NCBI GenBank assembly: GCA_007129145.1 | Contig: SKWC01000131.1 | Span: 1 to 54,851, forward strand | Direction of reading: 5' to 3' | From: Rubritepida sp. | Lineage (GTDB): Bacteria; Pseudomonadota; Alphaproteobacteria; Acetobacterales; Acetobacteraceae | Length of the DNA: 54,851 nt | In this document: piece by piece, positions 1,026 through 53,225 of the stretch | Layout: each line of letters opens with the position of its first letter | Numbering within the stretch: position 1 is the first letter of the stretch | Position numbers and translations under genes: made by a program | The notes under the pieces: model-generated | What the model was told of the DNA's origin: nothing | The model's input: only the letters and a program-made list of their open reading frames with translations | Databases searched by the model: none

Positions 1026-1055
1026 TTCGAGAAGTCTCGAACCCGGTGGTACACT
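1026..1055 (+). promoter_or_regulatory. Extended -10 promoter with the TTCGAG-N4-CTCGAA palindrome over its -35 region
   Basis: TG-G-TACACT at 1047-1055; palindrome at 1026-1041. Confidence 0.55.
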
Positions 1056-3896: not shown

Positions 3897-4301
3897 TCAG
3901 CCGGACATGCGCGAGAGGAAGGCATCAAGCTCAGGGTCCTCCTCTCTGGCCTTCTCCACGCCCTGCTCAACAGATGCGCGGGTGATGACGGGTGCGTCTT
4001 CGAGATTGCTCAAATCGAGAATGTCCCCGGTGGTGTCGGTTTCGCCCCGGTGGCGGAACATGCCGACCAGGTTGTAGGCACGCACGACGAGGTCGATGCC
4101 GTAGCTGACAATCTCGTAGGCCGTCGGCCCAAGGATGGTTCGGAGCCGCTCAAGCACCTCGGACAGGAGGCCGAGGACGAGTTCCTTCTTCTTCGGCCCC
4201 GGTGTGTCCGGGGAGGTGATGCTCTCGACGGTGGCTACCGCCATCTGGATCATCGGGATCAGCTTGAGGATCAGACCGAAGTTGCGGACGACTGCAAGCA
4301 T
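3897..4301 (-). CDS. Hypothetical protein (possibly lysis-associated)
   Basis: GAAGGGAG RBS; 134 aa with a GPKKKELVL motif. Confidence 0.7.
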   Translation of the reverse strand: MLAVVRNFGLILKLIPMIQMAVATVESITSPDTPGPKKKELVLGLLSEVLERLRTILGPTAYEIVSYGIDLVVRAYNLVGMFRHRGETDTTGDILDLSNLEDAPVITRASVEQGVEKAREEDPELDAFLSRMSG

Positions 4302-4387: not shown

Positions 4388-4417
4388 TTGACACACCCCC
4401 CGGTACTGCGGTATGAT
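4388..4417 (+). promoter_or_regulatory. Sigma70-type promoter of the replication operon
   Basis: TTGACA-18 nt-TATGAT, followed by GAAAGGAGG RBS. Confidence 0.8.
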
Positions 4418-6315: not shown

Positions 6316-7015
6316 GGTGTACATCACGCTCGACATCGAGACGCTGCCCGACATGCGAGAGGGGGCGGCTGATGCCGCCCGCTCCCGCATCTCCGCACCG
6401 TCCAACTACAAGGACCCCGTCAAGATCGAGGCGTACATCGCCGAGAAGGGCGAGGAGGCGTGGCGCCGCACCGCTCTCGATGGCGGGTACGGCGAGGTGC
6501 TGTGCATCGGGTACGCCGTCAACGCCTACCCTGGCCGGGTCATGTACCGGAACCTTGAACTGGAGCCGCACGAGCAGGAACGTGACCTACTCGAGCGCTT
6601 CTGGCGCATCATCCGAGGGTTCGAGCCTGTCGTCGGCGACATCTGCTTCATCGGCAACCGGGTCGCCGCCTTCGACCTGCGGTTCCTGTGGCGCCGCAGC
6701 GTCATCCACGGCGTCCGCCCCAGCCTTGACCTGCCGCTGAACGATGGCCCCTGGTCCGACCGTGTGGCTGACCTGTCGTACATGTGGACGGGTGAGCGCA
6801 GCGGCGGCATCTCGCTCGACACCCTGGCCGACATCTTCGGCGTCGAGACCGGCGACACCGGCCTGTCCGGCGCTCACGTGTTCGACGCGTTCGAGCGAGG
6901 CGAGCATGAGCGCATCCAGGTGTACTGCCTCGGTGACGTGGAGGTGTCCCGGGGGCTGTACAACGCCATGACGTTCGACAGCATCCTTCGTCTCGCCAAG
7001 GACGCCTGGGAGTAG
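6308..7015 (+). CDS. DnaQ/PolB-type 3'-5' exonuclease
   Basis: ExoI LDIET, ExoII NRVAAFDLRFL, ExoIII YCLGDV. Confidence 0.88.
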   Translation: MAEVYITLDIETLPDMREGAADAARSRISAPSNYKDPVKIEAYIAEKGEEAWRRTALDGGYGEVLCIGYAVNAYPGRVMYRNLELEPHEQERDLLERFWRIIRGFEPVVGDICFIGNRVAAFDLRFLWRRSVIHGVRPSLDLPLNDGPWSDRVADLSYMWTGERSGGISLDTLADIFGVETGDTGLSGAHVFDAFERGEHERIQVYCLGDVEVSRGLYNAMTFDSILRLAKDAWE

Positions 7016-7017
7016 GC

Positions 7018-7290
7018 ATGTCAGACGACCCACGCCCCGTCCCCAGGGAGAAGCTCGAGATCAGGCTGACCGCCATGCCGAACGACGACAGGCCGCTCGC
7101 TCACTACGCTGGCTACCAGAACTTCTTCGTCCACGTGCGCATCGGCCACATCGGACCCTGGAAGAACACTGGCTCCATCACCCTGCACACGTCAGCTTTC
7201 AGGTACATCCTCAAGGGCGACGTGAACGTGACGCTACCCCTGGTTGAACTCCATCAGGTATTGGACGACGAAGCGAAGCGGAGCCGCTGA
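7018..7290 (+). CDS. Hypothetical protein
   Basis: Fills the operon between coupled genes. Confidence 0.65.
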   Translation: MSDDPRPVPREKLEIRLTAMPNDDRPLAHYAGYQNFFVHVRIGHIGPWKNTGSITLHTSAFRYILKGDVNVTLPLVELHQVLDDEAKRSR

Positions 7291-7940
7291 TGCCCTGGTA
7301 CCGTGGCGGCAAGAGCATCTTCTCCAAGCCCGGCGACAGCCCCGAGGAACGCTCCGTCAAGTCACTGACGAAGGTCATCAGGCGAGCAGCGATCCGTCGC
7401 ATCCTCGCTGGCCGGTACGGTGCCGACGGCATCAGCAGCCTCACCCAGCTCCAGACCATCCTCGCCCAGCAGCACGGCATCACTGCCCACATCATGACCA
7501 TCTCCCGAGACCTCGACGAGATGGGCGCCGTGAAGGTGCAAGACGTGGAGAAGCCCAGCGTGCAGTTCTGGGTGGTGCCCGCCTTCAACCCGAACCTCGA
7601 GAACCTCCGAGAGACGATGGACTCCGAAGCCATCGAGCAGGAGGTGTTCTACAAGCTGACGATGCACGTCATCGACATCTCGATGCTGTACGAGCGCATC
7701 ATCATCATGACCGAGCCGAGAGCCGGGTATCTGGTGGCATACTGGCTGTCCTGGCTGCGATGGCCCGGCATGGTGAGCGTTCAAGAGCAGCTCGATGGCT
7801 GCATCATCCACTGCCTCGATCCCGATCATGCCGAGGGCATCTACCAGATGCTCGTCGGTCACCCGCTCGACCGTGAGGAGGACACTGATGCCGAAGCGGA
7901 AGAAGGAGAGGAAGAGCCTCTTCGGGAACATCACCCGTGA
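7290..7940 (+). CDS. Divergent ArgR (arginine repressor)-family DNA-binding protein
   Basis: wHTH RRAAIRRIL...LQTILAQQHGITAHIMTISRDLDEMGAVKV matches the ArgR SRDL signature; C-terminal domain IIIMTEPRAG...LDGCIIHC follows the ArgR oligomerisation pattern. Confidence 0.85.
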   Translation: MPWYRGGKSIFSKPGDSPEERSVKSLTKVIRRAAIRRILAGRYGADGISSLTQLQTILAQQHGITAHIMTISRDLDEMGAVKVQDVEKPSVQFWVVPAFNPNLENLRETMDSEAIEQEVFYKLTMHVIDISMLYERIIIMTEPRAGYLVAYWLSWLRWPGMVSVQEQLDGCIIHCLDPDHAEGIYQMLVGHPLDREEDTDAEAEEGEEEPLREHHP

Positions 7941-8103
7941 GGAGTTCATGGCCATCACCCCGGAGGACATCGCCGCCTCCCACGCTAGGGACAAGGCGTA
8001 CTTCGATGAGGTCGTCGGCCCTGGCCCGGTCCGGCTCAAGTTCAAGAAGTCTCGAAGGAAGGGGTCGAAGCTGGTACCACGTGCCAAGCGTGCGTCATAC
8101 TGA
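7888..8103 (+). CDS. Small basic hypothetical protein
   Basis: ATG at 7888 after GAGGAGG; MPKRKKERKSLFG. Confidence 0.6.
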   Translation: MPKRKKERKSLFGNITREEFMAITPEDIAASHARDKAYFDEVVGPGPVRLKFKKSRRKGSKLVPRAKRASY

Positions 8104-8107
8104 CCGC

Positions 8108-8605
8108 ATGCACAGTCCACGTGAACTCCGAATCCAGCTCGAATCGCACGAGAAGATGCTGAACGACCTCCAGGAAGAGATCAGCGTGATGGAGGAAGGC
8201 GTCTCTCACATCGACATCGACCTCTCCAACACCGTCGCCGAGTTCGTCGAGAGCACCGGGCGCCAGTCGTACGAGTTCTACAAGTGGCGCCGCAAGGCGA
8301 AGTGGGCAAGGCACCACAAGATCAAGGCCATCACGGTGGCTCAGGAGCGCGTGCGTGCGTACGAGGAGAAGGTGCGCCAGACGCAGCTCCTCCTGCACGC
8401 CGTCGAGTCCGGCTACCGTGGCCAGGACCCGCATCAGCTCCTCTCGGCCACGTACCACCTGCTGATGGAAGTGCTGTCCCGCTCGGATTACACCGTCGAC
8501 GCTCACCAGATGGGCTTGATCGCCGCCATCCGGCTGAGCCTCGGCATCGACAAAGAGGACGGGCAGGCCCCGCAGCCTGCCCGCCCCATCCCCCAAGCAC
8601 CGTAG
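8108..8605 (+). CDS. Coiled-coil hypothetical protein
   Basis: ATG at 8108; heptad-like N-terminus. Confidence 0.65.
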   Translation: MHSPRELRIQLESHEKMLNDLQEEISVMEEGVSHIDIDLSNTVAEFVESTGRQSYEFYKWRRKAKWARHHKIKAITVAQERVRAYEEKVRQTQLLLHAVESGYRGQDPHQLLSATYHLLMEVLSRSDYTVDAHQMGLIAAIRLSLGIDKEDGQAPQPARPIPQAP

Positions 8606-8614
8606 GAGGTGTGC

Positions 8615-8944
8615 ATGTCAGCACGCAGAGATACTACCCCGCAACCGTCCGTGGTGGAGATGATGGCCATGATGAGGTCACGGGTCGTTACCAAGGTTCG
8701 CAGCCTTCCCCCGTCTCTCCAGGTCACTGCCATCTGGCTGTACGAGCAGGCAGACGGGAATGACGTGATCGACGACATCGACTGGGAGCGGCTCGCTGAG
8801 GACACCAGCATCGCCGAGACCACCCTGCGCCGCGTTCACCTGCGCGACTCAACCATCCTCACCACCCAGGGTGGATTCATCGAGCGTGAAGAGCGCCTCA
8901 TCGGCGGCTCCATGAGCAAACCGATCTTCCGCTTCTACCTGTAA
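8615..8944 (+). CDS. Putative winged-HTH protein
   Basis: GGAGG RBS; DWERLAEDTSIAETTLRR helix-turn-helix followed by GFIEREE wing. Confidence 0.55.
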   Translation: MSARRDTTPQPSVVEMMAMMRSRVVTKVRSLPPSLQVTAIWLYEQADGNDVIDDIDWERLAEDTSIAETTLRRVHLRDSTILTTQGGFIEREERLIGGSMSKPIFRFYL

Positions 8945-8951
8945 CGCAACA

Positions 8952-8983
8952 TCTACCCCCCTGTCGGTGAACAGGGGGGCAGA
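8952..8983. terminator. 13-bp hairpin upstream of the initiator gene
   Basis: TCTACCCCCCTGT-N6-ACAGGGGGGCAGA. Confidence 0.45.
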
Positions 8984-9945: not shown

Positions 9946-11851
9946 AGATGGTGATGAGCTGACCGCCGCCATCGCCGCGAAGGACCTGAGCAAACTGATC
10001 GCCGCGCACTACCCTGACTCGAGGGTGGATGTCGGCAAGCCCGGCGTGTACTTCGCTTCGTGGCGGGGGAACACGAACACGCCTGCGCTCTCGTTGTCGA
10101 AGAAGCAGGGTGTGTGGTTGTGGCATGACATGGCGACGGGCGAGGGTGGCAATGCCTTCGACTTCATGGTCAACATCATGGGAATGGGGCGGCAAGAGGC
10201 AGCGATAGGGCTTCTCTCGGAGGCTGGGTACCGCCCAGGAGAGCCTCGAGAGGGTGGGTCGGCCTCCAAGTCCCGGCCACTACCCCCGGAGGCCGTCACG
10301 GCCTTCTCACAGCCTGAGATCGTGCCAATCGCAGCCATGAAGGGGCGCGGTTTCAACAAGCGGATGCTCGAAACGTACCGAATCATCCCCGCACCCGACC
10401 GACCGGACGATGCGCTGATCCCCATCACCAGCCCGGAGGGCGTCATCCTTCAGGTGAAGCGCCGCATCCACAACGCGCAGAAGGGCAAGTACCGCTACGA
10501 GCACGAGGGTTACGGAGGCCCACCGTGGTGCAGCCCAGGCTCCCGGAAGCCGAACGTCTTGTACGTCATCGAGGGGGAGCTGAACGCCATCGTAGCGCAC
10601 GCGTCACTACTGGAGGCCGGTGAGCGCATCGGTGTGATGGGCGTAGCCGGAGCGAAGAACTCCCTGTACGAGGGCCTGTGCATGGGCAAGTCGGTGTTCA
10701 TCTATGCCGACGACGACAAGGCCGGGAAGGAGGCGATGGACGCCTGGAGCGAGGAAGCCAGGAAGCAAGGCGCCCGCAGCGTGCACCGACTCCCACCCCT
10801 GCCGATGGACTTTTGCGACTACGCCGCTCAGCACGGGCGTGAGGCGCTGGCGGCGAAGCTCAGGGAGATGCACCACTTCAGCATCCAGGTGTTCGGGGCA
10901 ATGGATCGCATGGTCGGGTCGTACACGGTTCGAGAACTCGCAAAGAGCGCCGCTCGCTACATCAGCGGCGAGGTCATCAACCCGCTCGGCATCGGCGCCA
11001 TCGACTACGAGACGGGCGGCATGGGTGAGAGCGGCGTCATCGCCATCGGCGCCCTGCCCAGCATCGGCAAGAGCGCCCTGCTCAGGAAAGCGCTGCTCGA
11101 GCACGTGAGGATGGGTGGCACGACCCGGCTGTACAGCCCGGACCAGAGCACGCATGCCATCTACCGCCTGCTCGCCAGCCTACTCAGCGACGTGGGCACG
11201 AAGGAAGCAAGGCAGCGCAACTTCAGCCGAGCGGTACTCGACCGGTACGGCGACCCAGAAGCCGCCATCAAGGCGTGGAAGGACGCGTACGAGTACGTCG
11301 TGATGGAACTGTCGAGCCGCTTCCAGGTCAGCGAGGAGAGCGACCTCACCGAGATCGGCAAGGACATGGAGCGGGCTAGGGATCAGGGCGTCACCATGTT
11401 CGGCGGTGACTACCTTCAGCTCTTCGAGATGGGCGCGTCGTCGCAATGGGAGGGCAACAGCGAGGAGGGTGCGGTGGCGCAGCGCTTCAAGCGCCTCACC
11501 CGCAACCTCGGCGTGCTGTTCGTCTGCGCCGTGCAGCTCGCCAAGTACAAGTTCCCCATGACCCGCAAGAGCGGCATCCCGTTCCCCAGCGACATCGAGG
11601 GCAGCGGCAAGACGTGGCAGGCAGCCGAGATGGCGTTCGGCATCTACAACGACAGCATCTACGGACGCATGTACGCCGGACCGGACACCGACCTGATCGG
11701 TGACCCGCCCGACATCGCACGGCTGTACCTCTGGAAGCACAAGGAAGGCGATCCAGGGTTGGAGTTCAACGTGCTGTGGCACGGTCGCATCGCTGCGTTC
11801 AAGGACCCGAAGCGACCCAAGCTCGAGCACGAGAGAGAGGGCCTGATGTGA
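9938..11851 (+). CDS. DNA primase-helicase (Toprim + DnaB-like SF4)
   Basis: WHDMATGEGGNAFDF, Toprim IEGELN and ADDDKAG, Walker A GALPSIGKS, GDYLQL, SDIEGSG. Confidence 0.9.
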   Translation: MRRDGDELTAAIAAKDLSKLIAAHYPDSRVDVGKPGVYFASWRGNTNTPALSLSKKQGVWLWHDMATGEGGNAFDFMVNIMGMGRQEAAIGLLSEAGYRPGEPREGGSASKSRPLPPEAVTAFSQPEIVPIAAMKGRGFNKRMLETYRIIPAPDRPDDALIPITSPEGVILQVKRRIHNAQKGKYRYEHEGYGGPPWCSPGSRKPNVLYVIEGELNAIVAHASLLEAGERIGVMGVAGAKNSLYEGLCMGKSVFIYADDDKAGKEAMDAWSEEARKQGARSVHRLPPLPMDFCDYAAQHGREALAAKLREMHHFSIQVFGAMDRMVGSYTVRELAKSAARYISGEVINPLGIGAIDYETGGMGESGVIAIGALPSIGKSALLRKALLEHVRMGGTTRLYSPDQSTHAIYRLLASLLSDVGTKEARQRNFSRAVLDRYGDPEAAIKAWKDAYEYVVMELSSRFQVSEESDLTEIGKDMERARDQGVTMFGGDYLQLFEMGASSQWEGNSEEGAVAQRFKRLTRNLGVLFVCAVQLAKYKFPMTRKSGIPFPSDIEGSGKTWQAAEMAFGIYNDSIYGRMYAGPDTDLIGDPPDIARLYLWKHKEGDPGLEFNVLWHGRIAAFKDPKRPKLEHEREGLM

Positions 11852-14333: not shown

Positions 14334-14336
14334 CAG

Positions 14337-15239
14337 TTACACCGAGGTGTCCAGGAAGAAGTCGCCATCCACCGCGTTCAGCGGGGTAACGGTGCCGACC
14401 CAATCGACGAACGTGAACCCACTCGGCCTTGCCATACTGGCGTTCGCGCCGTGAATCACTCGCGTGATGTTCGCGTTCGTACCCGCTGCACCGGTCGGGC
14501 CGGTCGGGCCTTGAACGCCAGCGGGACCGGCGGGACCAACCGGTCCCTCGGCGCCAGTCGCTCCGGTCGGGCCGGTAGCGCCGGGCGGGCCGGTGGGGCC
14601 GGTAATGCCTTGCAGGCCAGTGTCACCCTTGTCACCCTTGGGGCCAGCCGGTCCGGTGGGGCCAGCGGGGCCGGTCTCGCCTTGCGGTCCTTGAATCTGG
14701 CCGACGTTCTGCCATGCGGCGCCGTCCCACACGTGAAGGTTGCCGTCGATGAGGTACCCGTCACCTGCCGTGTTGCCGCTGACGGGCAACTCGCTCACGT
14801 TCGCAAGGGTGCCCTTGATGGTGACGCTGGTGCCGTCATCACCCTTCGGTCCCGTCGGTCCGGCTGGGCCGGTGGCGCCGGTCGCGCCGGTCTCCCCGGT
14901 CGGTCCGGCTGGCCCGATGGGTCCCGTCGGTCCGGCTGGGCCGTTTGGTCCGGTGGCGCCCGTGGGGCCGGTAGGGCCGGTCGCTCCGGTGTCGCCAGCC
15001 GGTCCCGTAGGACCCGGGGGTCCCTCAGGCCCCACGGGACCCTGCGGCCCCTCGGGACCCGTCGGTCCGATGCCTGACTCGGGAATCGTAGCGATGGCGT
15101 CATACACCGCCTCAAGCTCCTGGACGGTGCGCACGAACTGCTCCCTGATCGCCGCGAAGTTCGCACGCACGTTCGCCGTTGATGCGCGCCCCTGAACCGG
15201 TACGTTTGGGTTGATGGTGGTCGGGTCGATAGGTGGCAT
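14337..15239 (-). CDS. Collagen-like tail fibre
   Basis: Start MPPIDP at 15239; two long Gly-X-Y tracts flanking a [23 protein letters not shown] knot. Confidence 0.88.
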
Positions 15240-15240
15240 C

Positions 15241-15369
15241 TCAGTCCCTCCAACGGGTGCGGAACAGGCCGAGGAAGCGCCTATCCCACGTGGTCTTACC
15301 ATCATCCCAGATGACCTCGTTCGACGAGCGCCCAATGAGGCGATTCAAGAACTCTCGAAGTGCCCGCAT
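15241..15369 (-). CDS. 42-aa Trp-rich peptide (not in the ORF track)
   Basis: [42 protein letters not shown] fills the gap between two genes exactly. Confidence 0.55.
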
Positions 15370-17318: not shown

Positions 17319-18432
17319 GGATTGCCTCTGGTGAGACGGTGGCGTCAAGCGCATCATCATCCTCCACGGGTACGGTCGTCGTCACGACCTCGATTGGCGT
17401 TTCTGGCGCCACGGTAGCATTCAGTTCATCGTCATCATCGAAGGCCGCGGTGTCTTCATCTACCCGCACCGCCTCCGGCGATACGGTGGCGTCAAGGCCG
17501 TCGTCATCCGTCACGGGCAGCGTGTCGCTATCCACCCGCACCGCCTCTGGCGTCACGGTGGCACCGAGTTCATCGTCGTCCGGCTGGTTCCAGGTGTCCT
17601 CTTCCGCTCGTAGATTTTCCGGGGCTACGGTAGCGGAGAGGGGGTCCACCGGCTCGAACACAGGGATCAACTCGGTGAAGTACAGCTCCGACAGCAGCAT
17701 CTCGGGCAGCACGTCACCAGCCGCATCAGACACGAGGAGCTGGTACCGGGCCGAGACGGGCACGGCTCGGTCCATCACGACCGGGTCGTCGAAGTCGTGG
17801 ATGGTGAGCACGGTGTTGAACAACTGCCGCTGCGCCCGGCAGCGCACACCCAACCGGTCAGGTGTCAGGTAGAAGATCAGGATGTCGCTGTCCGAGATGG
17901 CGTTCTCGAGCCACTCACCGTTCGGTATCCACTGGAAGATGATCTTCACGCCCGCCATGTACAGCGTACGGTACGGTTCCGGGAAGCCGCGCGGATCGGC
18001 AACGGTGGCATCCATGATGATGCACGGGTCAAGACCGGCAAAGGTGACGTTCTGCACGTACTGGTTCGTGAACGGGTCCCACCTGGTAACGACGATTTCA
18101 CCGTTCAGTTCGTACGCCACGATGACGCGAGCGCTTTGGTCGAACGCGAACGTGAGGTGCCTGGCACCCTCCGGGATGGCATCGTCGAACAGTGGCGGTA
18201 GCAGGCTCGTCACCTGCGTCCACGTCTGATCGCTTACGGACAAGCGATACAGTTCGAGTATTCTCGAATCCTTCACCAGCAGCAGCGAGTAGATGCGACC
18301 GAACAACACCTCGTAGCTGTTGTCGCCCGTCACGCCGACCTGCACCGGACCGAGAGCGAACGACGCCTCGAAGTACCCGTAGTCCTTCGTGCCCCGCAGG
18401 CTCAGTTCCGGCACGACCCGAAGCTGACTCAC
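17302..18432 (-). CDS. Tail protein with acidic C-terminal repeats
   Basis: GTG at 18432; LTFAFDQSAR motif; five repeats of about 24 aa (DDDxLxATVxPE). Confidence 0.7.
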   Translation of the reverse strand: MSQLRVVPELSLRGTKDYGYFEASFALGPVQVGVTGDNSYEVLFGRIYSLLLVKDSRILELYRLSVSDQTWTQVTSLLPPLFDDAIPEGARHLTFAFDQSARVIVAYELNGEIVVTRWDPFTNQYVQNVTFAGLDPCIIMDATVADPRGFPEPYRTLYMAGVKIIFQWIPNGEWLENAISDSDILIFYLTPDRLGVRCRAQRQLFNTVLTIHDFDDPVVMDRAVPVSARYQLLVSDAAGDVLPEMLLSELYFTELIPVFEPVDPLSATVAPENLRAEEDTWNQPDDDELGATVTPEAVRVDSDTLPVTDDDGLDATVSPEAVRVDEDTAAFDDDDELNATVAPETPIEVVTTTVPVEDDDALDATVSPEAIRVQTV

Positions 18433-21400: not shown

Positions 21401-23198
21401 CAAGCTGCTGCATGTTCCGGCGAGCGGCCTTCGTGGTCAGGTCCGGGAAGTTGCGGAACGAGGTGCGCACCGCCGTCGCGAGGGTACCGACGCGCTCCAT
21501 CAAGTCCTCAACCTGACCGGTGTAGGTGCCGATGTTCGAGATGCGCTCCGCTTCGTTGCGGCCAGCGATGCGCTGCATCTCACCCTCGATGGCTGAACGG
21601 TGGGCGAAGCGGCGACGCAGCCGCTCGTTGTTTTCGATAGCCTCACGGGAGATGGTCGAGCGGAGTTTGATGCCCGTCGATTCACCCATCAGCTTCGTGT
21701 AGTCCTCCTTGCTCCGCAGGCCAGCGGCGAGGAGGCGTTGCCATGCCCGGTCCCCGATGGCGGACTCGCCAGTCAGCTCAAGGCCGCGCAGGCGAATCTG
21801 GTTGGAGACGAAGCCGAACCCGCTGGTCTCGAGGCCGAGACGCGCGTCGATCAGGGCGGTGTCGCGCAGGTAGCGGTTGAACACGTCGACCGCTTGACGC
21901 TCGGCCTGCATGATGGTCTGGTCCGTAGCTCCCGCCGCCCGGCGAGCCTGCTGCGCGGCGACGTTCGCCACGTTCTCGCGAGCCTCACGCAGCAGGGGCG
22001 TGCCCGCCGACGCGACCTCGTTCAAGATTTCTCGAAGCGGCTGCCGACCGGCATCATCAGCCCGGTCGATGACCCGGAAGATGTCACCGAACGCACCCGC
22101 CAACTGCTCATCGGCAATGCGGCCAGCCATCCTCGACTCCTCGAGTACGGAGAGGAAGCCGAGGTTCTGGTTCACGTTGTAGGCCTCGCGCTCGATTGCG
22201 TCCCGAACTATCGGCTGTAGACCCTCGAGATTGTTCTTGTACGCGTGCACCTGATCCTCAAGGGTACGAATCCACATCCGCACGATGTCATCCGCGTCGC
22301 TACCGAGGCGCCCCTGCTGGGCACGCTGAAGCATCGTCAGCGCTTCCTCGCTGACTCGACGCCCCTGCTCCTTGCCCATCTGCACGACCTTCAGCATCTC
22401 CGCGCCCATCTCGTTGCCGAAGCGGATGCGGAGCATCTGGCCACGCGGAAGAATCTGGTCGAGCACCTTCGTGGTCTTCTCGCCGAAGCGCTGAATGCCG
22501 AACAGGGTCGAGTCCGGGTTACGGATCAGCCGCGCCAGCGCATCCATCCGAGTGTCCATGAAGTTGCTCAAGTGCTGCGAGCGGCGAGCGACGCCGACCA
22601 CCTCGCGGCCCATGCCAATCGGGGAGATGAAGTGATCCACCCGGTCGCCGAGCCTCGTGAGGTCCTGGATGCCGCTCAGTTTCCCGCCCAGACGCAACCA
22701 AGAGCCGAAGATCAACGGGTCCGCCGTCAGGTCAGCAGCGATGCCCGCCCACTTCGCGACCTGCGGCTCGAAACCGAGCAGGTCGAAAACCTCCTCACCA
22801 CTCGCGGGTCGAGCGGGCACGTCGCCGCCCGGCATGTACTTGCCCCACTCCATACTCTGGAACCGCTGCGTGATGGTCGTCTCGTCATCGAGCGACCCGG
22901 CGATCACCGAGAAGAACACGTCCTGCGGGAGCTGCAACGGCGCCAGGGCCGACGCCACGCCGCGCAGGGCGCCACCGACCGATTCACGCACCGGGGCGGG
23001 CAGGTCGCTGACGAAGCGTGCGATGCCCGTCGGTTCCTCCTCGTCATCCACGCCGCGCATCTGGCGACCGAGCTGCCGGATGGACACGGGACCCGTGAGG
23101 CTCGTGGCGGGGTTGAACACGCCGGGCGTGGCGAGGGTGTGGCCGAGTTCCTGGCCGGTCCTCAGGCTCCTGCCGAGTTGCCGGATGCTAGACGCCAT
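18429..23198 (-). CDS. Large internal virion (ejection) protein
   Basis: 1589 aa, helical, FDYSEL...LFPGFTY motif, located after the SLT-bearing protein. Confidence 0.75.
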   Translation of the reverse strand: MASSIRQLGRSLRTGQELGHTLATPGVFNPATSLTGPVSIRQLGRQMRGVDDEEEPTGIARFVSDLPAPVRESVGGALRGVASALAPLQLPQDVFFSVIAGSLDDETTITQRFQSMEWGKYMPGGDVPARPASGEEVFDLLGFEPQVAKWAGIAADLTADPLIFGSWLRLGGKLSGIQDLTRLGDRVDHFISPIGMGREVVGVARRSQHLSNFMDTRMDALARLIRNPDSTLFGIQRFGEKTTKVLDQILPRGQMLRIRFGNEMGAEMLKVVQMGKEQGRRVSEEALTMLQRAQQGRLGSDADDIVRMWIRTLEDQVHAYKNNLEGLQPIVRDAIEREAYNVNQNLGFLSVLEESRMAGRIADEQLAGAFGDIFRVIDRADDAGRQPLREILNEVASAGTPLLREARENVANVAAQQARRAAGATDQTIMQAERQAVDVFNRYLRDTALIDARLGLETSGFGFVSNQIRLRGLELTGESAIGDRAWQRLLAAGLRSKEDYTKLMGESTGIKLRSTISREAIENNERLRRRFAHRSAIEGEMQRIAGRNEAERISNIGTYTGQVEDLMERVGTLATAVRTSFRNFPDLTTKAARRNMQQLEEAVDSYGQAMWNMIGAGAEGGGSGAREVGRLMQVESRLQKLLRKQAELLEQVPTASYPPQTRWTVPESGRQWLREAQEQTASLIEDLGSAMLARKTAREQIKQAADARRVAAREARDVDGIPMEGSRRALDDIGRQAVREAVPQSDARTVAFLNDLQVPLAGRNATAEDILAARLYSRKYKTIQEALDAPITFSEMLDGMASMQALDLGDYLQGLMNGHLRRAYAIFQDPNDFKTYTDALRIGRIIPSRFMDEDAILPALAARNLDNEGRLIMEYKNAMTRGGRGFMLSHSKMADHLLASGADPARVRAAMRTMLETMHADNAPMRSLLHKLDEVVPAYRQAMKRREQASARFDSEQPRLMGERFFDPREELTDSMLEALGEYAMAQMSITESATIANRVVSRQDVLQNALVLGRRRGYVRDSPFTDEFGTRFVKYADEGTVIPGFAGKYIHPYLAQELQRATALGTQDIPAGLTRLRSLVTGGFLASPNVIAANFMGGLYQAATVGLNPFVMTRRLIETFGDVDSMARGRYSDLIAEMKRHMPLETSSLSYQDFVQGLRRVRLDEFGLDGGGIKRFGDQIAHVYEGFLQRPGIGKFRARYAGLEGFQFTENWMKVAGYAEMKSRLTRRLGNRTPTPDEALRIQQEAAEFARLIVFDYSELPRSLERLKNYGLVLFPGFTYFLAGRTLNAALRRPGAVAVADRISEAMSNASLSIEDQVALLLGTPDWMQMDQGVPMPFTVRRDEAGDRKVSVIPMAQLIPTQTLWDGHWGQGNPFAESVAGGGVWGPLAEVFMAMVRGDDEAPLSAQFGNRVFDADSRGVEKARDVTRFLFNTMAPSIVKKSITVDNNNELAGLFPSIPSMFRDLSTPMPTELAERFYSFDERRSGRPDKTWRENVLSSFLRSPQVIALDGPLAGIRRELTNARADLNRELSSLRTKFNRARMAQRFDEADKHRARMEELEREFAQEWQMYLDFNREHQERQQRSRAE

Positions 23199-27239: not shown

Positions 27240-27522
27240 GCTTCACCTCGAATCGCCCCTGATCTCGGTACTGGAACAACTGCTCGATGGCTTCGCGGAC
27301 ACGCGGGACGATGTCCTCTCGGCACAGCATAGACGATAGCGGCGCTCCCGTCACGAGACCCCTCAGCAGCGCTTCGAGACTTCTCGAACCGGACGAGTCC
27401 TCGAACGCGTCCGACCCCGTGGCCATGATGACCTCCAGCCGGTTACGCATGAACGGGTCAGCCATGAACACCAGCCGGTACGCGTTCTCCCTCGCCTCAG
27501 CCTTGGCGGGCTTGCGCTTCAT
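27229..27522 (-). CDS. Hypothetical protein
   Basis: GGAGG RBS; 97 aa. Confidence 0.6.
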   Translation of the reverse strand: MKRKPAKAEARENAYRLVFMADPFMRNRLEVIMATGSDAFEDSSGSRSLEALLRGLVTGAPLSSMLCREDIVPRVREAIEQLFQYRDQGRFEVKHGH

Positions 27523-29628: not shown

Positions 29629-32600
29629 CGCAACTCACCCCCGGCAGCGAACACGAACCGCAGCGGCAGCTTCAGTGAGTCCAGGTACGACATGCCGCGC
29701 AGCTCGAGCCGTGCATCAATCGTGAACGAGCGCGTAGAGCGCAACGGCAAGCGCCACGAGATGATGCCAACGTTCCGATTCCCGATCTCCTGCATGATCG
29801 GCGGTATGCCGCCCGCCTGCGGGTCGATGGTCTCGAACGTGTCACCGTTCGTTGACGCGCCCGCCGTGTAGAACAACGCGGGCAGGACAGCGGCGTCGTA
29901 ACCACCAGCATCCCGGTCGTACTCGAGCTGCGCCATTGGCCCTTGAGTGCCGACCTTCACCACGTACAGCGGCGTGCGCCTCTCCGGGGCGCCGAAGTCC
30001 AGGTCCCTGAACACGACGTGCGGCGAGTCCGGGTCGCCATCGCGCCGCGTGACCCACACCTCACCGTTGGAGCGCACGAAGCGCGTACCGGTCTCCTCGG
30101 CAGGAGCAGGCAGCATCTCGGTGACCGCCTCGCCGTCCCTGGTCACAGCGTCGGTGAGCCAGAACTGGTCATCCACCACGTACCGCAGCACCCGACCCGC
30201 CTCGGTGAGCGCCAGGATGCTGCGCGTCTGCGGCTCCGGGACGATGCGCACGAACGGGTCCTCACGGAGCCACTGATCGCGGCTGATCTCCGTCGCCTGA
30301 CCCGCCTGAAGCAGCCACACCTTGCCATCCCAGATGGTGAACGGCAAGCCGCCGAGCTTGCAAGGGCTGGTGCCTGCATCGCAACCGACCATGTCGAGGT
30401 ACAGCTCCACGCTGAGGTTCCCGAACGCGGCGTCGCCGTTGACGAGGAAGACCTCGTTGTCGAACATCACCATCAAGCCGCTCGGGGTCGAGAGGATGCC
30501 GGTGAAGCTCTGGGATTGCGTCGGCTGGATGGGGATGTAGCTCTGATCGTTCATCAGGTTCGCCCAGCCGGTCTCCGTGTAGCTCAGCACGAAGCGGTTG
30601 AACTGGTTCGCGATCTCCGGGCTGATGCCGTCCTCCAGGCTCCAGCGGTCCTCGTCCTGCGACGCCATGCCCCACACGCGCCCGTTGTGGATCGCGGTTC
30701 GAGATTGCTCGAAGACCGCTGTCGTCGCGCCGCCATCCACGGTCAGTTGGCGACCGAGCGGCAGCACGTCCAGTTGCCGCTCGAGTTCCACCAGGCCATC
30801 GCCGGTCTCCGGGAACTCAGTGGTGAACGCGTACCGGATAGTGGTCTGAGCGGTCAAATCCTGAAGCGATTTCTCCTGCGAGTCGACATCGCCACCCTCG
30901 GAAAGGAACTGCACGTACACGTCAAGGCGCAAGTCCTCGGCCACCTCGGCGCTCAACCATGCGTTATTCGCAACCAGCGCCTCTTGCGATTGGGCAGCGA
31001 GAGTGATGAGGTTCCCGAACTCCTGCCCAAGCACGATGGATTGCCGGTTGAAGTCGAACACGAAGCGCCCCGCCCGCGTATTGAAGTAAGACACGAAGAA
31101 CACGTTGTACGTGCCGCGCCTCAGCGCAATCTGGGAAGCGGTGTTCGCGATGATGCCGCCTTCCCCCACGTAGATCGCAGCCCCATTGTCTGCAAACGCA
31201 ACGGACTGAATCGCCCTTCCTCCTGACGTGTACTCTTCAAGGATGGTGTTCTCGATCTCCGTGATACGTTGCCATGAGTTCCCGTCGCTGCTGTGCCACA
31301 CGCGAGGCTGAGCGTTCGTGGGGCCAGAGCCGCCGACGATGGCCCAGGAGTTACGGACCGGGTTCCACTTCACTTTGCGCAACGAGCCGAAGCCGCCGAG
31401 CGTAGCCGTCGTTGGCCAACTCGTGAACTGCGCCGCTGGCATAGGCTCGGTCCATTCGCCCCTGTAGACCTCTCCGGTGATGCCGTTGACGGCAACCCAG
31501 GTTCCAGCGTTATTGCTTTCGCACCATGAGGTTCCGGCATTCGCAACAGTGATCTGTACGGAGGCAACCGAGAGGAAGCCGGTACGAAGTGACTGGGGAG
31601 CGAAGTGCGCACCGTCCGTACCATCGGGTATCTCAGTGTTGTGGAATACGCTTTGGTTCCCAAGGTTGACCGAGCACGGCCCAAGGATCGAGAACGGTAT
31701 TCCGTTACGGCTCTTGTCTACGGCGAGTCGCTGAACCTCGTACGTCCGACTCACCCCGGTCAGGTTGTCGATCTCCGTCCACGAATCGCCAAGGTCGGTG
31801 CTGCGCCAGATTTTCGCACCACTCGCCAGCAGGATGTTGCCATTCACGTGCACCACGGAGGTCACGAGCAGACCGCCGCCGTTGATGTTCTGCTGGGTCC
31901 AGCTAAGCCCATCATCGTCCGAGTAGTACGCCGTACCGTTCCGGGCCGATGCCAGCCATCGCCCGTTCGCGTAGATCACGGAACTCATGTTCGCACCGGA
32001 GAACTGAGTGATTCCTGACCATGTCGTGCCTTCATTAGTGGAGCGCTGAATGTGCCCCTGGCTGGTGACGAAGATGAACGTGCCGCCGTTGTGCTCGATG
32101 TCGTTGATGTTGCCGATACCGGTGATCTGCATCACCGTCGTACCCGGCAACGCTTCCGCCTCGATGGCGGTGCTGATCGAGATGGGTTCCATCACGCGGT
32201 CCTGACGGTCGAACACCAGGAACGCGTCCCGGCTCATGTACGCGCCCGCGTTATCGATGTGCACCGCGTCAACGATGCTCGGGTAATCGGTAGAGACCTG
32301 CTGAGCGAACGTCTCCGCGCCCTTGAAGAGCTGGAACTTCCCATTCGTCGCCGCCGTGGTGCGGTACGACGAGATGCCGCTCTCGTCATAGTCGATGATG
32401 CGGCTGATATGCGTCAACGCGACTGGCGTTGCGTCACTCTCGAGCCGCACGCGGCGACCGAACGGCACGTACCCACCCTGACGATCCGGCACCAGGTTGA
32501 ACACCCGGTACGGCATGAGCGGCTTGTCCTCACGCTGCCCGTAGACCATGTTGCGGTTCTGACCGGTCAGTTGCGGGACCTCAAGCACGCTCTGCGGCAC
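29625..32600 (-). CDS. Tail nozzle (tubular protein B-like) with an inserted Asp-box propeller
   Basis: 991 aa, beta-rich, follows the adaptor genes; SxxxGxxW boxes in the central part. Confidence 0.65.
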   Translation of the reverse strand: MPQSVLEVPQLTGQNRNMVYGQREDKPLMPYRVFNLVPDRQGGYVPFGRRVRLESDATPVALTHISRIIDYDESGISSYRTTAATNGKFQLFKGAETFAQQVSTDYPSIVDAVHIDNAGAYMSRDAFLVFDRQDRVMEPISISTAIEAEALPGTTVMQITGIGNINDIEHNGGTFIFVTSQGHIQRSTNEGTTWSGITQFSGANMSSVIYANGRWLASARNGTAYYSDDDGLSWTQQNINGGGLLVTSVVHVNGNILLASGAKIWRSTDLGDSWTEIDNLTGVSRTYEVQRLAVDKSRNGIPFSILGPCSVNLGNQSVFHNTEIPDGTDGAHFAPQSLRTGFLSVASVQITVANAGTSWCESNNAGTWVAVNGITGEVYRGEWTEPMPAAQFTSWPTTATLGGFGSLRKVKWNPVRNSWAIVGGSGPTNAQPRVWHSSDGNSWQRITEIENTILEEYTSGGRAIQSVAFADNGAAIYVGEGGIIANTASQIALRRGTYNVFFVSYFNTRAGRFVFDFNRQSIVLGQEFGNLITLAAQSQEALVANNAWLSAEVAEDLRLDVYVQFLSEGGDVDSQEKSLQDLTAQTTIRYAFTTEFPETGDGLVELERQLDVLPLGRQLTVDGGATTAVFEQSRTAIHNGRVWGMASQDEDRWSLEDGISPEIANQFNRFVLSYTETGWANLMNDQSYIPIQPTQSQSFTGILSTPSGLMVMFDNEVFLVNGDAAFGNLSVELYLDMVGCDAGTSPCKLGGLPFTIWDGKVWLLQAGQATEISRDQWLREDPFVRIVPEPQTRSILALTEAGRVLRYVVDDQFWLTDAVTRDGEAVTEMLPAPAEETGTRFVRSNGEVWVTRRDGDPDSPHVVFRDLDFGAPERRTPLYVVKVGTQGPMAQLEYDRDAGGYDAAVLPALFYTAGASTNGDTFETIDPQAGGIPPIMQEIGNRNVGIISWRLPLRSTRSFTIDARLELRGMSYLDSLKLPLRFVFAAGGELR

Positions 32601-34329: not shown

Positions 34330-34415
34330 GATGCGCCTCCCTCATGGGGCGAGTATAGACGACGAGGGGCACCACATGGGCGCCCCTCGAGTTCGAGCAT
34401 TCTTGAACCGCGTCC

Positions 34416-40688: not shown

Positions 40689-41324
40689 TCAGCCTTCTTC
40701 CCGGCGCACGTCGAAGCGCCCGCCTTGCTCATCATGACGGATGCGGCCCACGAAGTCACCCGTGAGAACCGCCTGCGGCTCACCGTCGATGTGAGCGTCG
40801 ATGACGTTCAAGACATCTCGAACCGAAAGCCGATGCAGCACCACCCGCGTCGCGTACGACGCCTCGCGCTGCCGGTCCAGCAGCTCCCAGTGCTCACCGA
40901 GGATGCGAGCGGCCTTGTCGAACGCGTACGGGTCCGTCGCCCAACGGCGCGGCCCAGTCAGGAACAAGCCACGCAAGAACGCGACCGGATGCCGATGATC
41001 CGCGTGCGGGTAGAGACGATGGATGATGTCGGCGTAATCCTCGAAGCACTCCTGGTAGCTACCGTACGAGCGCCACTTCGCGACGATGTCAACCCGCTGA
41101 CCGTTCACGACCTCCCACGTCGGCAGGTCCACCGTCTCCCCCGCCCATGCGCCGGTCGCCTTGACGCCGAACAGGTTGTGATGCGGCGGCTTGCCGAGCG
41201 AGCTTGAGCCGAAGCCCGTCTCGTTCGCAGCGTGAGCCGCAGCGCCAGCCGCGCTGATTCGACTCGAGGAACCCAGCATCGCGCCCTCGTGCACGTCGAT
41301 CAGCCAACGCTCTCGAGATGTCAC
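40689..41324 (-). CDS. Endolysin, GH73 glucosaminidase/FlgJ-like
   Basis: AANETGFG, NLFGVKA, WRSYGS, WATDP. Confidence 0.9.
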   Translation of the reverse strand: MTSRERWLIDVHEGAMLGSSSRISAAGAAAHAANETGFGSSSLGKPPHHNLFGVKATGAWAGETVDLPTWEVVNGQRVDIVAKWRSYGSYQECFEDYADIIHRLYPHADHRHPVAFLRGLFLTGPRRWATDPYAFDKAARILGEHWELLDRQREASYATRVVLHRLSVRDVLNVIDAHIDGEPQAVLTGDFVGRIRHDEQGGRFDVRREEG

Positions 41325-41327
41325 GGC

Positions 41328-43118
41328 TTACCTCCCCGTGCCCCACTGCTTGAAGCGGTCCGAGAACGCCTTGCGGGGCGTGAAGTCGACATCGACGACG
41401 GCGTTCTTGGCCAAGCCCTTCGTGACCATGCTGACCGCGATCTTGAGGGAGTCCCCCACGTCCACCATCCAGTTGTTCCGCTGACGACGCACCATGCGCC
41501 ACGACAGGTTCAGCAGCGTCTTCCTGATCTGCTCGCAGTTCTCCGTCACCATCAGCTTCGGCAACGGCGTCTGCGCGATGAAGTCGTCCTGCACATCTAG
41601 CATCCTCACGAGTTCATCGTACGCCGGGTCGCCTCGAGCGCCCTCGAACAGGTTGTCGCCGAGGACCTCGATGTAGTTGTCCACGATGCGATGCTCGCTG
41701 TCCTTGTCGAACACGCGGGCGTTCATTGCCGGGTCGTAGCCCCAGATGTGCGTCAAGCCGGGGATGCTGAGCTGCTTCGCCTCCACCGCGTTCGCGTAGC
41801 TGCTCTGGCCGCTCTTGACCATCTCGTCGAAGAAGATCAGCGAGTTGGAGCGCTCCAGGTACATTGCGAACGTGATCGCGGTCGGGTGGTCACCGCCGTG
41901 GTCGATGCCGCATACGATGGTATTGCCGGAGCGGGCGATGCGCTCCCGTGGAACCTTGGGAAGGACGTGCCCGCCATGGCTGACAGCCTCGTCGATGTAG
42001 TTGGGTGCTACACGCCCCTCACGCTCGTCCGTGTCGCCATGCTGATGCCGACGGCGCATCTTCGTGTTGGCCATCAGGTAGGAGTTCTCGACGGAGCGGT
42101 GGTCCCGGCTCTCATTCTCGTAGCCGAACGCGTATATGCAGTAGCGTTGCAGAACTAGGCCGACCTCCTTGTCCGGCACCTTCCGACCATCCACCAGCGT
42201 CACGGTGCTGCCCTTGTGCAGCGCCGAGAAGGAGCGCGTGCCGTCCGTGAGTTTCACGATGGCGCCCGCCCGGAAGCGGAAGCGGTCGTGCCGCAGCGTC
42301 TCCGGGTCGACGTTCACCTCTCGGATGCCGACGTTCTCGTTCACCCACTCCTCGCTCGGTGACGGGTACGGGAACGGGATGCCGACGTACCGCGCCCAGG
42401 TGTGATCGTTACCTGCCGGGTTCCAGGTGGCCGACACCACCGTCCAGCCGGGCATCGGGTGGTCCGGTGGGAGCTGCTTCTCGCCCACGCGGTTCAAGGA
42501 ATCTTGAAGAAGAATCTCGTACGCGTCCTGCCACGTCAGCGTCCGGCCAGCGAACGGCGACCAGGTGATCGCCAGCTTCATGCACAGGTCCTTCACCGTC
42601 AGCGTGCGGTGGTAGATCTCCTGCCGCGAGCGCTCCTGCACCATGTCGTGCGCGTCACTGGGAATCTCATCGGCTTCCTCCAGGTGCACGGTGGCGTACT
42701 CCGTGGACTTCAGGACGCGTTCCAGGTCCGTGCGGTCCAGGCCGATGCCGTTCACGACGCTCTGGACGTAGTTGCCGGTCACCGGGTGCGGCTCGGGCGG
42801 GAAGCGGAACACCGCCTCCTGAAGGTTCTCACTGCCGCCGACGCTCTTGTCGAACACAGCGCCAATGCGCTGCCGCAGCTTGTCGATGGTCGAGTCCTTC
42901 AGCGAGACCAGCGTGGCTCTCGCGATCAGGATGTTCGAGCCGGGGTACTCCATGCCCCTACGCCCGAGGCGGTCAACGGCAGCCGTGGACTTCGCGGTGT
43001 TGAACGGCCCCACGAAGCCTAGCTCCGGGAAGTCGTCGTTCACCACGAAGTCGTTGTACTTGAACCTGATCGGGCCGCTAGGCGGCGTCAGGTCAAGCGT
43101 CAGGCTGCGCCTGCGCAC
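41328..43118 (-). CDS. terL: Terminase large subunit
   Basis: Walker A variant GPFNTAKS, Walker B HLEEADE, TWNP, nuclease GIDHGGDHPTA and DVGDSL. Confidence 0.88.
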   Translation of the reverse strand: MRRRSLTLDLTPPSGPIRFKYNDFVVNDDFPELGFVGPFNTAKSTAAVDRLGRRGMEYPGSNILIARATLVSLKDSTIDKLRQRIGAVFDKSVGGSENLQEAVFRFPPEPHPVTGNYVQSVVNGIGLDRTDLERVLKSTEYATVHLEEADEIPSDAHDMVQERSRQEIYHRTLTVKDLCMKLAITWSPFAGRTLTWQDAYEILLQDSLNRVGEKQLPPDHPMPGWTVVSATWNPAGNDHTWARYVGIPFPYPSPSEEWVNENVGIREVNVDPETLRHDRFRFRAGAIVKLTDGTRSFSALHKGSTVTLVDGRKVPDKEVGLVLQRYCIYAFGYENESRDHRSVENSYLMANTKMRRRHQHGDTDEREGRVAPNYIDEAVSHGGHVLPKVPRERIARSGNTIVCGIDHGGDHPTAITFAMYLERSNSLIFFDEMVKSGQSSYANAVEAKQLSIPGLTHIWGYDPAMNARVFDKDSEHRIVDNYIEVLGDNLFEGARGDPAYDELVRMLDVQDDFIAQTPLPKLMVTENCEQIRKTLLNLSWRMVRRQRNNWMVDVGDSLKIAVSMVTKGLAKNAVVDVDFTPRKAFSDRFKQWGTGR

Positions 43119-46179: not shown

Positions 46180-46180
46180 G

Positions 46181-47299
46181 TCACCTGCCCCTGTTCAGGA
46201 ACTTGTTCAGCGCTCGGATGGCCTCACCGTACTCTTCCATCGGAATGCCCCTGCTGCGATCCCAGCCACCAGTCGGGCCTTGCAGGACTTCGAGAAGTCT
46301 CGAACCGTCCCACGGTTGCACGAAGTGGCGACTCGGCGCGTAGAGGGCGCCCTCCTTGCCAACACGATCCCACCATCCGCTGTAGCCCAGGTCGATCATC
46401 GTCGGCATCACCTGAGGCTCAGGAACGTACGTGTACACCATCTCGTACAAGCGACGCGGGTCCAACCGGCCCTCATCCGCGAGACGCGTCACGCCACGCA
46501 GAAACGTCGGGTCAGTCCTCGGGTTATCAGCCAAGTTCGCGACGATGCGCTGCGCCTGCTCAGGGGTGAACGGACCCTGCTCGAAGTCCAGTAGGTTCGC
46601 GCCAGCCACGTATCCCGTCCGCACGTTCGGAGCCGCATCAGGTCGACCGCTACCCCCGCCGAAGAAGCCGGTGTCCTTCGCGGGCGACCCGGCGTAACGC
46701 GCGGCACGCTCAGGGTCCTGCGTGAAGTACCACCCCGGCCCACCACCCGACGAACCAGGTCGAGGCTTGTCGTACACGTAGTTCGTACCGTGATACATCG
46801 GCATCGGCAAGCCATCAGCGCCAGCGATGCTGATGCGACCCAGCGCCCGCAGAGCCGCCCTCGGGATCATCGCCGCCATCTGCGCGAACTGCCCAGGCCC
46901 AGGCTCGAACACGCCCATCGCCGCCTGCGCCGCCAAGCCACGCGCACCCTCGAAGCCCTGCTGAGCCGTCACGTCCCCGTACGTCAGTGAGGGATCGAAC
47001 GCAGGCAAGTCACCCCACGTGCCGGGGTGCGCCAAGATCGCCTGCCAGATGTTCGCCGGGATCGCGTCAGGGTTGCCGTAGTTCGCCGCGACCGGACCGA
47101 GTCGCTCACCAGTCTCCGCAGCCATCTGCCGCCAGCCAGCCAGGAACCGCTGAATCACGTTCCCGCTATCAGTCCGAGGAGCCTCCGCTACCGGGCTTCG
47201 CATCTGGCTGAGGTCGGCGTGCTGGAAAGCCCGCCCATCGTGCTGCCCGCTGGGCGTATGAGTCCCCGTGGGCGGTGGCCGTCGGTCGCGGTCTGCCAT
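46181..47299 (-). CDS. Protein with a C-terminal ADP-ribosyltransferase-like (ART-PolyVal-type) domain
   Basis: PMYHGT...GPGWYFTQDPERAARYA...NVRTGYV..NLLD...GYSG. Confidence 0.7.
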   Translation of the reverse strand: MADRDRRPPPTGTHTPSGQHDGRAFQHADLSQMRSPVAEAPRTDSGNVIQRFLAGWRQMAAETGERLGPVAANYGNPDAIPANIWQAILAHPGTWGDLPAFDPSLTYGDVTAQQGFEGARGLAAQAAMGVFEPGPGQFAQMAAMIPRAALRALGRISIAGADGLPMPMYHGTNYVYDKPRPGSSGGGPGWYFTQDPERAARYAGSPAKDTGFFGGGSGRPDAAPNVRTGYVAGANLLDFEQGPFTPEQAQRIVANLADNPRTDPTFLRGVTRLADEGRLDPRRLYEMVYTYVPEPQVMPTMIDLGYSGWWDRVGKEGALYAPSRHFVQPWDGSRLLEVLQGPTGGWDRSRGIPMEEYGEAIRALNKFLNRGR

Positions 47300-49366: not shown

Positions 49367-49611
49367 TCGTTGACCTCCTCGAAGAGCGGCTGCTCTCCCT
49401 CGAGCCGTGTGGGTTCGAGATTACTTGAACCGGCCTGTGCCTGTACGAACTCGAGCGCGGCGCCGAGGCGGTGCAGTGAGGCGTGAGCAGCGTTGGAGCC
49501 GCCACCGCCGAAGATCGAAGCCTTGGAGGCGGAGAGCGCCCCAATCGAGGCGGCGGCGATTCCGAACGACAGGTCCTCGGCGGTCAGCTTCAGGCGCGGA
49601 TCGTCAGGCAT
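49363..49611 (-). CDS. Hypothetical protein
   Basis: Start MPDDPR at 49611. Confidence 0.6.
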   Translation of the reverse strand: MPDDPRLKLTAEDLSFGIAAASIGALSASKASIFGGGGSNAAHASLHRLGAALEFVQAQAGSSNLEPTRLEGEQPLFEEVNE

Positions 49612-50629: not shown

Positions 50630-50868
50630 TTCCGCGCCTTCACCTGCGTGGTCTTCGAGAAGTCTCGAACCGGGCGCGGCTCAGGCTCAACGGGCGACGC
50701 CACGCGGGGCTGAGGCTCCCTCACTTGACGTACCTGATCCTCAGCTTCCTTCTCCCGAGACAACCGCTCCAGCGCGAGCACCTGAAGCGACACGCCTCTC
50801 TTCGCTGCCTCCACGCGCATGTCACGGTGAAGCTCATCAGACACCTGCACCTTCACCCACTTCGCCAT
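50626..50868 (-). CDS. Ribbon-helix-helix DNA-binding protein
   Basis: ATG at 50868 after GGAGG; MAKWVKVQVSDELHRDMRVEAAKRGVSLQVL. Confidence 0.8.
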   Translation of the reverse strand: MAKWVKVQVSDELHRDMRVEAAKRGVSLQVLALERLSREKEAEDQVRQVREPQPRVASPVEPEPRPVRDFSKTTQVKARK

Positions 50869-53165: not shown

Positions 53166-53225
53166 GGGATCGGCAATCGGGGCGTCCTGGTTCGAGAGTT
53201 CTCGAACCGGGGCGCCTCACCGCTC

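Follow-up and report, generated by a model that had tools for sequence, protein, structure and literature searches.

Does a phage-encoded relative of the arginine repressor read the palindromes that are scattered over the same genome? The window (the whole stretch of DNA analysed here, 54,851 nucleotides) carries both an ArgR-like gene and a repeated palindrome. ArgR is a hexamer that binds palindromic ARG boxes with an AT-rich 4-bp centre, and the initial annotation had proposed that this copy, with a rewired recognition helix and no arginine pocket, reads the array in a genome-organising or silencing system, or else poisons the host ArgR. The gene and its parts are:

7290..7940, + strand: ArgR-derived gene, 216 aa (Pfam, AlphaFold/Foldseek, profile alignment)
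7371..7574, + strand: winged-helix domain, residues 28–95 (Pfam and model; family-wide Arg31 in 33/34 and Arg36 in 34/34 sequences)
7488..7511, + strand: start of the recognition helix, HIMTISRD, residues 67–74 (variable among relatives; Arg73 in 4/28)
7587..7616, + strand: extra linker helix, residues 100–109 (about 10 residues without counterpart in AhrC)
7623..7859, + strand: ArgR-type oligomerisation domain, residues 112–190 (TExRAG and YWxSW invariant in the near clade)
7776..7799, + strand: rewritten arginine pocket SVQEQLDG, residues 163–170 (profile alignment)

Both ArgR domains are indeed recognisable. In the HMM comparison that had been suggested, Arg_repressor (PF01316) matched residues 28–89 above its cut-off (E 6.8e-7; 29.4 bits vs 27), but Arg_repressor_C (PF02863) had no match in the window copy at E ≤ 0.1. 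Across the phage ArgR-like family the two models matched 22 and 13 of the 34 members, respectively. The C-domain was also recognised by structure and by profile. ArgR/AhrC structures were the top Foldseek matches of the AlphaFold model (pLDDT 86.9; 1b4a, E 3.2e-11), its C-domain superimposed on 1b4b and 2p5m with an rmsd of 0.8–0.9 Å, and the family profile matched Bacillus ArgRs at E 1e-8, ungapped through the pocket. In this ungapped register, H67-I-M-T-I-S-R-D74 aligns with AhrC TQATVSRD and S163-V-Q-E-Q-L-D-G170 with GTICGDDT, so that the two segments stand at the helix and pocket positions first assigned to them. The AhrC linker motif K75-R78-D82 was not kept in the alignment; in the linker helix, Glu104 and Arg107 were present in all 28 near sequences and in 22/34 and 28/34 wide ones, respectively. 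Against TIGR01529 the window protein scored 27.8 bits (cut-off 130), and all eight phage family proteins scored 19–30 bits against the curated cut-off of 130.45, compared with 147.5 bits for a host-family control. The family is built on the ArgR scaffold, yet by defining features it is no ArgR. The stretch 6841–8958, which includes the gene, recurs in an independent sample with 0 differences.

We take Gln104, Asp111 and Thr121 of AhrC to be arginine ligands; a Thr121 equivalent was found in none of the 34 wide sequences. The GDD motif is the sole tripeptide common to four compared ArgRs, and AhrC Asp125 and Asp126 contact arginine (PMC7248756, in part). The motif was absent from all 28 near and all 34 wide sequences, which supports arginine-blindness well, and we strongly infer that the protein is likely to be insensitive to arginine, as the initial annotation had it. 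The equivalent of Asp125 was Leu in 25/28 near sequences, while that of Asp126 was kept. The further statement that there is no arginine pocket needs qualifying: GDD is gone, but the pocket hairpin is the best conserved segment in the near clade (0.91), followed by helix 5 (0.85), and the pocket is therefore better described as rewritten. Glu142, Arg144, Gln165 and Asp169 were each found in 28/28 near sequences. The wider family varies here, with Arg144 in 15/34 and Asp169 in 19/34.

The protein belongs to an uncultured podovirus clade. Besides a holin and an endolysin, the window contig (C362) encodes a portal and an adaptor of SU10-like type and, within a large ORF, a lytic transglycosylase, and we therefore read it as a podovirus. 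It is the longest contig of its bin and has 64% GC vs 71% in the rest, a mismatch that makes the 54.9-kb phage contig likely to be mis-binned; the RecA of the bin was judged by eye to be alphaproteobacterial. Another outlier of the bin, C221 (31 kb, 61% GC), showed neither the motif nor any shared gene within the 20 kb at its start. A 62,026-base contig encodes the same ArgR-like protein, so about 7 kb is missing from the window phage genome. With the window genome short by this amount, no PF00589 integrase was found on the phage contigs C362, C29 and C96. The likely large terminase (41328–43118) had no Pfam or PHROG match and 43 relatives, one of which (P0073) has intein-type domains. In a relative from genome G002, a GroES-like protein (L151, 9763–10212, by eye) lies beside the small terminase position.

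The host of the phage probably belongs to Deinococcota. Thermus plasmid proteins are the nearest to the primase domain, and a related phage was binned in G002, whose RecA had as its best single-chain match entry 1xp8, which we take to be D. radiodurans RecA. The likely host family of 128 genomes is presumably Trueperaceae. Another relative was binned in a Dehalococcoidia genome, and binning alone is thus weak host evidence. Four spacer-like host matches were found, none inside a CRISPR array. In the likely host phylum, one of 364 genomes had a high-scoring ArgR-like gene, on a binned phage contig, and two weak matches were host ArgRs; the terminase was found in 1/128 host-family genomes, as binned contigs. 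A tail-region gene (12966–14333) shows 67–72% DNA identity to stretches in several host-family chromosomes and is possibly host-derived. Host-family ArgRs (L160, L164, L165) retain QATISRD in the recognition helix but carry GQN where GDD would stand in the arginine pocket.

The ArgR-like family comprises 30 near matches including the window protein itself, and 23 wider representatives at 50% clustering. All eight readable loci sit among homologues of window-phage genes or carry the palindrome. From matching sizes we infer that ArgR-like and terminase relatives lie on the same contigs of 65,182, 65,929 and 61,999 bases; terminase contigs of 57,647, 46,655 and 49,871 bases had no size-matched ArgR-like cluster among those compared. 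No relative came up in IMG/VR, whether the query was the ArgR-like protein or its alignment, the capsid protein or the alignment of the terminase. Metatranscriptome contigs cover scattered pieces of the window, none over the ArgR-like gene.

The 16-base palindromes of the window and its relatives, one roughly every 4 kb, follow the pattern TT(C/A)(G/A)AG-N4-CT(C/T)(G/T)AA. The window sites, given without strand, are:

1026..1041: palindrome site, intergenic
3999..4014: weaker site with 1 mismatch, in an ORF
8041..8056: palindrome site, in a small ORF 3' of the ArgR-like gene
10929..10944: weaker site with 2 mismatches, in the primase-helicase gene (relative L013 has an exact site with the same left flank)
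15344..15359: palindrome site, in an ORF
18253..18268: palindrome site, in an ORF
22021..22036: palindrome site, in a 1589-aa ORF
27373..27388: palindrome site, in an ORF
30698..30713: palindrome site, in an ORF
34392..34407: palindrome site, intergenic (two related contigs have a site in the same gap)
40807..40822: palindrome site, in the endolysin gene
42493..42508: palindrome site, in the likely terminase gene
46289..46304: palindrome site, in an ORF
49414..49429: palindrome site, in an ORF
50654..50669: palindrome site, in an ORF
53191..53206: palindrome site, intergenic, 26 bases 3' of a DUF3102-like gene

The exact form TTC(G/A)AG-N4-CT(C/T)GAA occurs 14 times in the window contig and not once in the other 481 contigs (2.41 Mb) of the bin, and with at most one mismatch there are 15 matches in the window vs 0.11 expected. 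The refined consensus is closer to STTCGAGA-N2-TCTCGAAS. The palindrome, which had been reported as a 6-4-6 element with an AT-rich core, is therefore real, and its 4-bp core is 80% AT in the window, but the AT-richness does not extend to the TTAGAG-type relatives, where the core is 12–50% AT. In the window the sites were spaced more evenly than expected at random (CV 0.49, P 0.003), and likewise in the relatives alone (P 0.0004). There was one site per 3.5–4.5 kb in the three larger sets and one per 2.2 kb in L004. The pattern had been widened with loci L003–L013, and counts for these loci are therefore partly circular. Five held-out contigs, L151–L155, were found through the widened pattern and are relatives of the window phage by protein similarity; the 11 sites that they carry in 47 kb all fit the narrower, window-only pattern, vs 0.01 expected. 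In genome G002, all nine sites were on two phage contigs. Some site positions are common to relatives and others turn over.

Within the window, 13/16 sites lie in called ORFs, in all three frames, at a coding fraction of 95%. Rare codons are preferred at the 11 exact sites that lie inside genes (z −7.1, 49 codons), a bias partly expected of an AT-richer motif in a GC-rich genome. When the window was scanned for promoters, except for bases 13,000–15,000, none of six promoter-like sites overlapped a palindrome. Rfam gave no match for the window. Even spacing, restriction to the phage and independence of promoters in sites under DNA-level selection together point to a function that depends on sites along the entire genome.

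We then asked where else the array occurs. The remaining 127 genomes of the likely host family showed no chromosomal array, only 0–2 sites at no more than one mismatch, as in the control. With the broader pattern, six host-family genomes gave 19–25 matches vs 10–12 in the control, which we read as a composition effect. A reader belonging to a host regulon was rejected on the absence of a chromosomal array, which points to a reader encoded by the phage. The Deinococcus RDRM/DdrO system was also considered and set aside; the RDRM is a 17-bp motif located in promoters, unlike the palindrome. The pattern scan gave 122 loci, of which 45 were examined, picked for larger contigs and multiple matches, and a 372-kb record with 3 matches was left out. 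The 45 unrelated viral records had at most 3 sites each and no such array. Three viral records with 2–3 sites have no ArgR-like gene; they are unrelated to the window, with no complete phage relative among them, and one of them, G006, is a phage of 31% GC whose proteins show hardly any similarity to those of the window. A single copy of TTCGAGAGATCTCGAA is present in some ten records of one IMG/VR source, including L016, L023, L032 and L043; together with the 2–3 copies of a similar palindrome in G005 and G006, this may be a separate conserved element.

The recognition helix had been described as rewired to a new specificity, and this we could not support. The SR motif, with the base-reading Arg73, is present in the window copy but in only 4/28 near and 2/34 wide sequences, position 73 is occupied by nine different residues, and a Gln38 equivalent was found in 1/28 near sequences; in Listeria ArgR, S42A/R43A abolishes binding to the ARG box (PMC5291005, in part). 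Exposed helix positions were conserved at 0.69, slightly under the protein average of about 0.74. In the near clade T70 was present in 28/28 sequences, S72 in 25/28, H67 and M69 in 22/28 each and I68 in 19/28. Near-invariant positions across the family are structural residues plus the helix-1 arginines Arg31 and Arg36.

Helices and sites were compared in eight gene-linked loci, two of which (L005 and L008) are nearly identical. Only sites on the same contig as the gene were weighed, because the G001 fragments overlap and derive from at least two phages. The half-site TTC(G/A)AGA goes with the helices IMTISR (window), IMTISK (L012), KETVST (L013, where 5/6 half-sites on the contig are of this form) and EMTIRT (L007, one site only, with one mismatch), and L004 has IMTLSI with mixed TTC and TTA sites. 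The helix thus varies freely while the site stays constant, which speaks against a new fixed specificity. In both lineages whose sites are all of the TTAGAG type the helix reads (R/K)D(V/T)V, and the two form one group (98/99), a hint of covariation.

The gene lies in a replication operon, between a PolB-type exonuclease gene and genes for an initiator, a primase-helicase and RuvC. Two further features belong here:

4388..4417, + strand: near-consensus sigma-70 promoter TTGACA-18-TATGAT (11/12), ahead of the replication operon, with no palindrome overlap
8108..8605, + strand: constant downstream neighbour, a helical hairpin with an invariant basic WRxxAKxAxxxK, candidate partner or reader

The co-occurrence of gene and motif was seen in 8/8 loci, seven with an exact broad match and the eighth with one mismatch. 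However, about 20 core genes co-occur equally with the array, so that the ArgR-like gene is not singled out. The neighbour at 8108–8605 adjoins it in 6/6 related loci that reach that far, and a fold search with it gave generic coiled-coil matches only. Other candidate readers are a small gene at 5694, whose S-A-R helix is conserved in 3/3 copies, and the DUF3102-like gene at 52482–53165. The latter ORF resembles DUF3102 or a replication-region DNA-binding protein (Atlas 0.89–0.91, a lead only); it is transcribed away from the late arm, and the palindrome lies just past its stop here and about 270 bases past it in G002:C29. Two ORFs in 43810–47299, near the packaging genes, resemble polyvalent injected proteins by a weak ART-PolyVal match (E 4.4e-5, below cut-off) and a ParB-like DGNHR stretch, and they have an N-terminal region in common with variable proteins of G002:C29. 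The DGNHR stretch was seen by eye in ORF 43810–46179, outside the aligned parts of the G002 relative.

Taken together, we favour, with slightly less than even confidence, the explanation that the ArgR-like protein may be an arginine-independent, low-specificity DNA-bridging oligomer in phage replication or recombination, and that another phage protein reads the array. It would form trimers or hexamers without arginine, would bind the DNA backbone or shape through helix 1 and the wing, and would act as an architectural bridge during replication and recombination, as ArgR does at cer. A partner, for instance the basic helical protein encoded downstream, might recruit it to palindromes, and the evenly spaced sites would be read by a different phage protein. 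The ArgR fold, the GDD loss, the variable helix, the conserved helix-1 arginines and the place in the replication operon speak for this explanation, as does an array that is independent of promoters. Against it, much of the recognition helix is kept in the near clade, at a conservation little below the protein average, and the TTAGAG lineages share a helix. Moreover, among the core genes the ArgR-like one alone comes from a family that binds palindromes of 18 bp with a 4-bp centre, and the alternative readers amount to a generic coiled coil and a DUF3102-like lead.

The same observations bear on the original proposal that the ArgR-like protein itself reads the palindromes, which we regard as possible but rather doubtful. 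Two winged-helix heads would bind each single palindrome, and the oligomer would loop sites 2–5 kb apart, compacting or self-marking the phage genome. In a similarly tentative form, the private palindrome every 2–5 kb, maintained within genes despite the rare codons that it demands, would be a self mark, and an arginine-blind oligomer would loop the marked DNA into a phage nucleoid, thereby organising or shielding it. Gene and array do occur together in all eight loci, the lack of an array in the 127 host-family genomes speaks for a reader encoded by the phage, conservation is seen at T70 and S72, the TTAGAG lineages have a distinct helix, and the 18-bp length and 4-bp centre fit the ARG-box layout (consensus from PMC5291005, in part). 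The likeness to ARG boxes ends with this layout, however. The palindromes are single, without tandem partner sites at 16–44 bp; they sit 7–9 mismatches from the E. coli ARG consensus, and the window has no canonical ARG box by that consensus at ≤4 mismatches. The link between protein and site is made doubtful also by IMTISR and KETVST going with the same half-site, by the mixed TTC/TTA sites with IMTLSI in L004, by the freedom of Arg73 to vary and by the equal co-occurrence of some 20 other core genes. Silencing, the other function proposed for such a pair, is weakened by the lack of overlap with promoter-like sites (0/6) and of a PF00589 integrase match on the phage contigs.

It is also conceivable, if quite unlikely, that the pocket has been remade to take a new ligand or a partner peptide, or is filled by a resident Arg144 or Arg107, and that the protein controls a small number of phage promoters without connection to the array. 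The top conservation of pocket hairpin and helix 5, with the four invariant residues, would fit this, and E. coli ArgR has resident arginines that compete for the pocket (PMC7248756, in part); the same positions vary in the wide family. Poisoning, in which the protein would co-assemble with host ArgR and derepress arginine synthesis, seems improbable and is the least likely reading, because trimer-core positions, as named for ArgR (PMC4865122, in part), are remodelled: Ile122 is replaced by Gln in 28/28, Ile131 by His in 25/28 and Val95 by Tyr or Phe in 25/28 sequences. The likely host family does have a canonical ArgR (147.5 bits, over the TIGR01529 cut-off), and the C-domain backbone is kept. 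On the other hand, the family profile scores Bacillus ArgRs at 61–72 bits, no lower than host-family ones at 50–64, so the host protein is not tracked; the host-family pocket motif is itself GTLAGQNT or GTIAGQNS, and the gene sits in a replication operon with its whole DNA-binding domain kept.

Compared with the bridging oligomer that we prefer, the array is the stronger novelty. No phage-encoded ArgR family was found in PHROGs or BFVD, nor in cultured phage genomes, where two weak matches fell on short unannotated Listeria records, and none was found in the literature at the level of search results. The protein represents a new, phage-borne version of the ArgR scaffold, next to a real genome-wide array. 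A host metabolic repressor kept as a core phage gene without its ligand motif offers a natural experiment in the loss of allostery and the reuse of a scaffold. For the array, functions that need whole-genome coverage include compaction, protection, self/non-self marking, and packaging or ejection, and the palindrome sequence is a ready bait for finding its reader.

Among known systems, the closest is ArgR/AhrC itself (PF01316 and PF02863, TIGR01529; 1b4a, 1f9n). The phage protein shares its two-domain fold, with a C-domain rmsd of 0.8–0.9 Å, the helix-1 arginines and the T..S.D of the recognition helix. It differs in lacking GDD, in a non-conserved SR, in about 10 extra linker residues that form a helix, in a Trp/Tyr-rich helix 5, and in being borne by a phage whose genome is without ARG boxes. 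Many sites for one protein across a phage genome are known from the stoperators of mycobacteriophage L5 and cluster A, which are 13-bp, asymmetric, oriented with transcription and located in promoters or short intergenic gaps of temperate phages (PMC9283540, in part). Unlike these, the present array is palindromic and evenly spaced, has 13/16 sites in ORFs, and no PF00589 integrase was found with it. In RK2, a number of palindromic operators of KorB are scattered round the 60-kb replicon. The array resembles KorB and ParB–parS in having palindromic sites scattered on a replicon, and KorB acts at long range (PMC11790492, in part); ParB_N (PF02195) had no match on the phage contigs, whose genomes are incomplete. 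The model for bridging is the architectural use of the ArgR scaffold at ColE1 cer, where ArgR is a DNA-bending and bridging accessory factor with XerCD/PepA (PMC5357621, in part). Unlike with XerCD at cer, no tyrosine recombinase was found on contigs C362, C29 and C96. In ColE1 the host ArgR is used at a defined recombination site, whereas the sites of the phage are many and evenly spaced.
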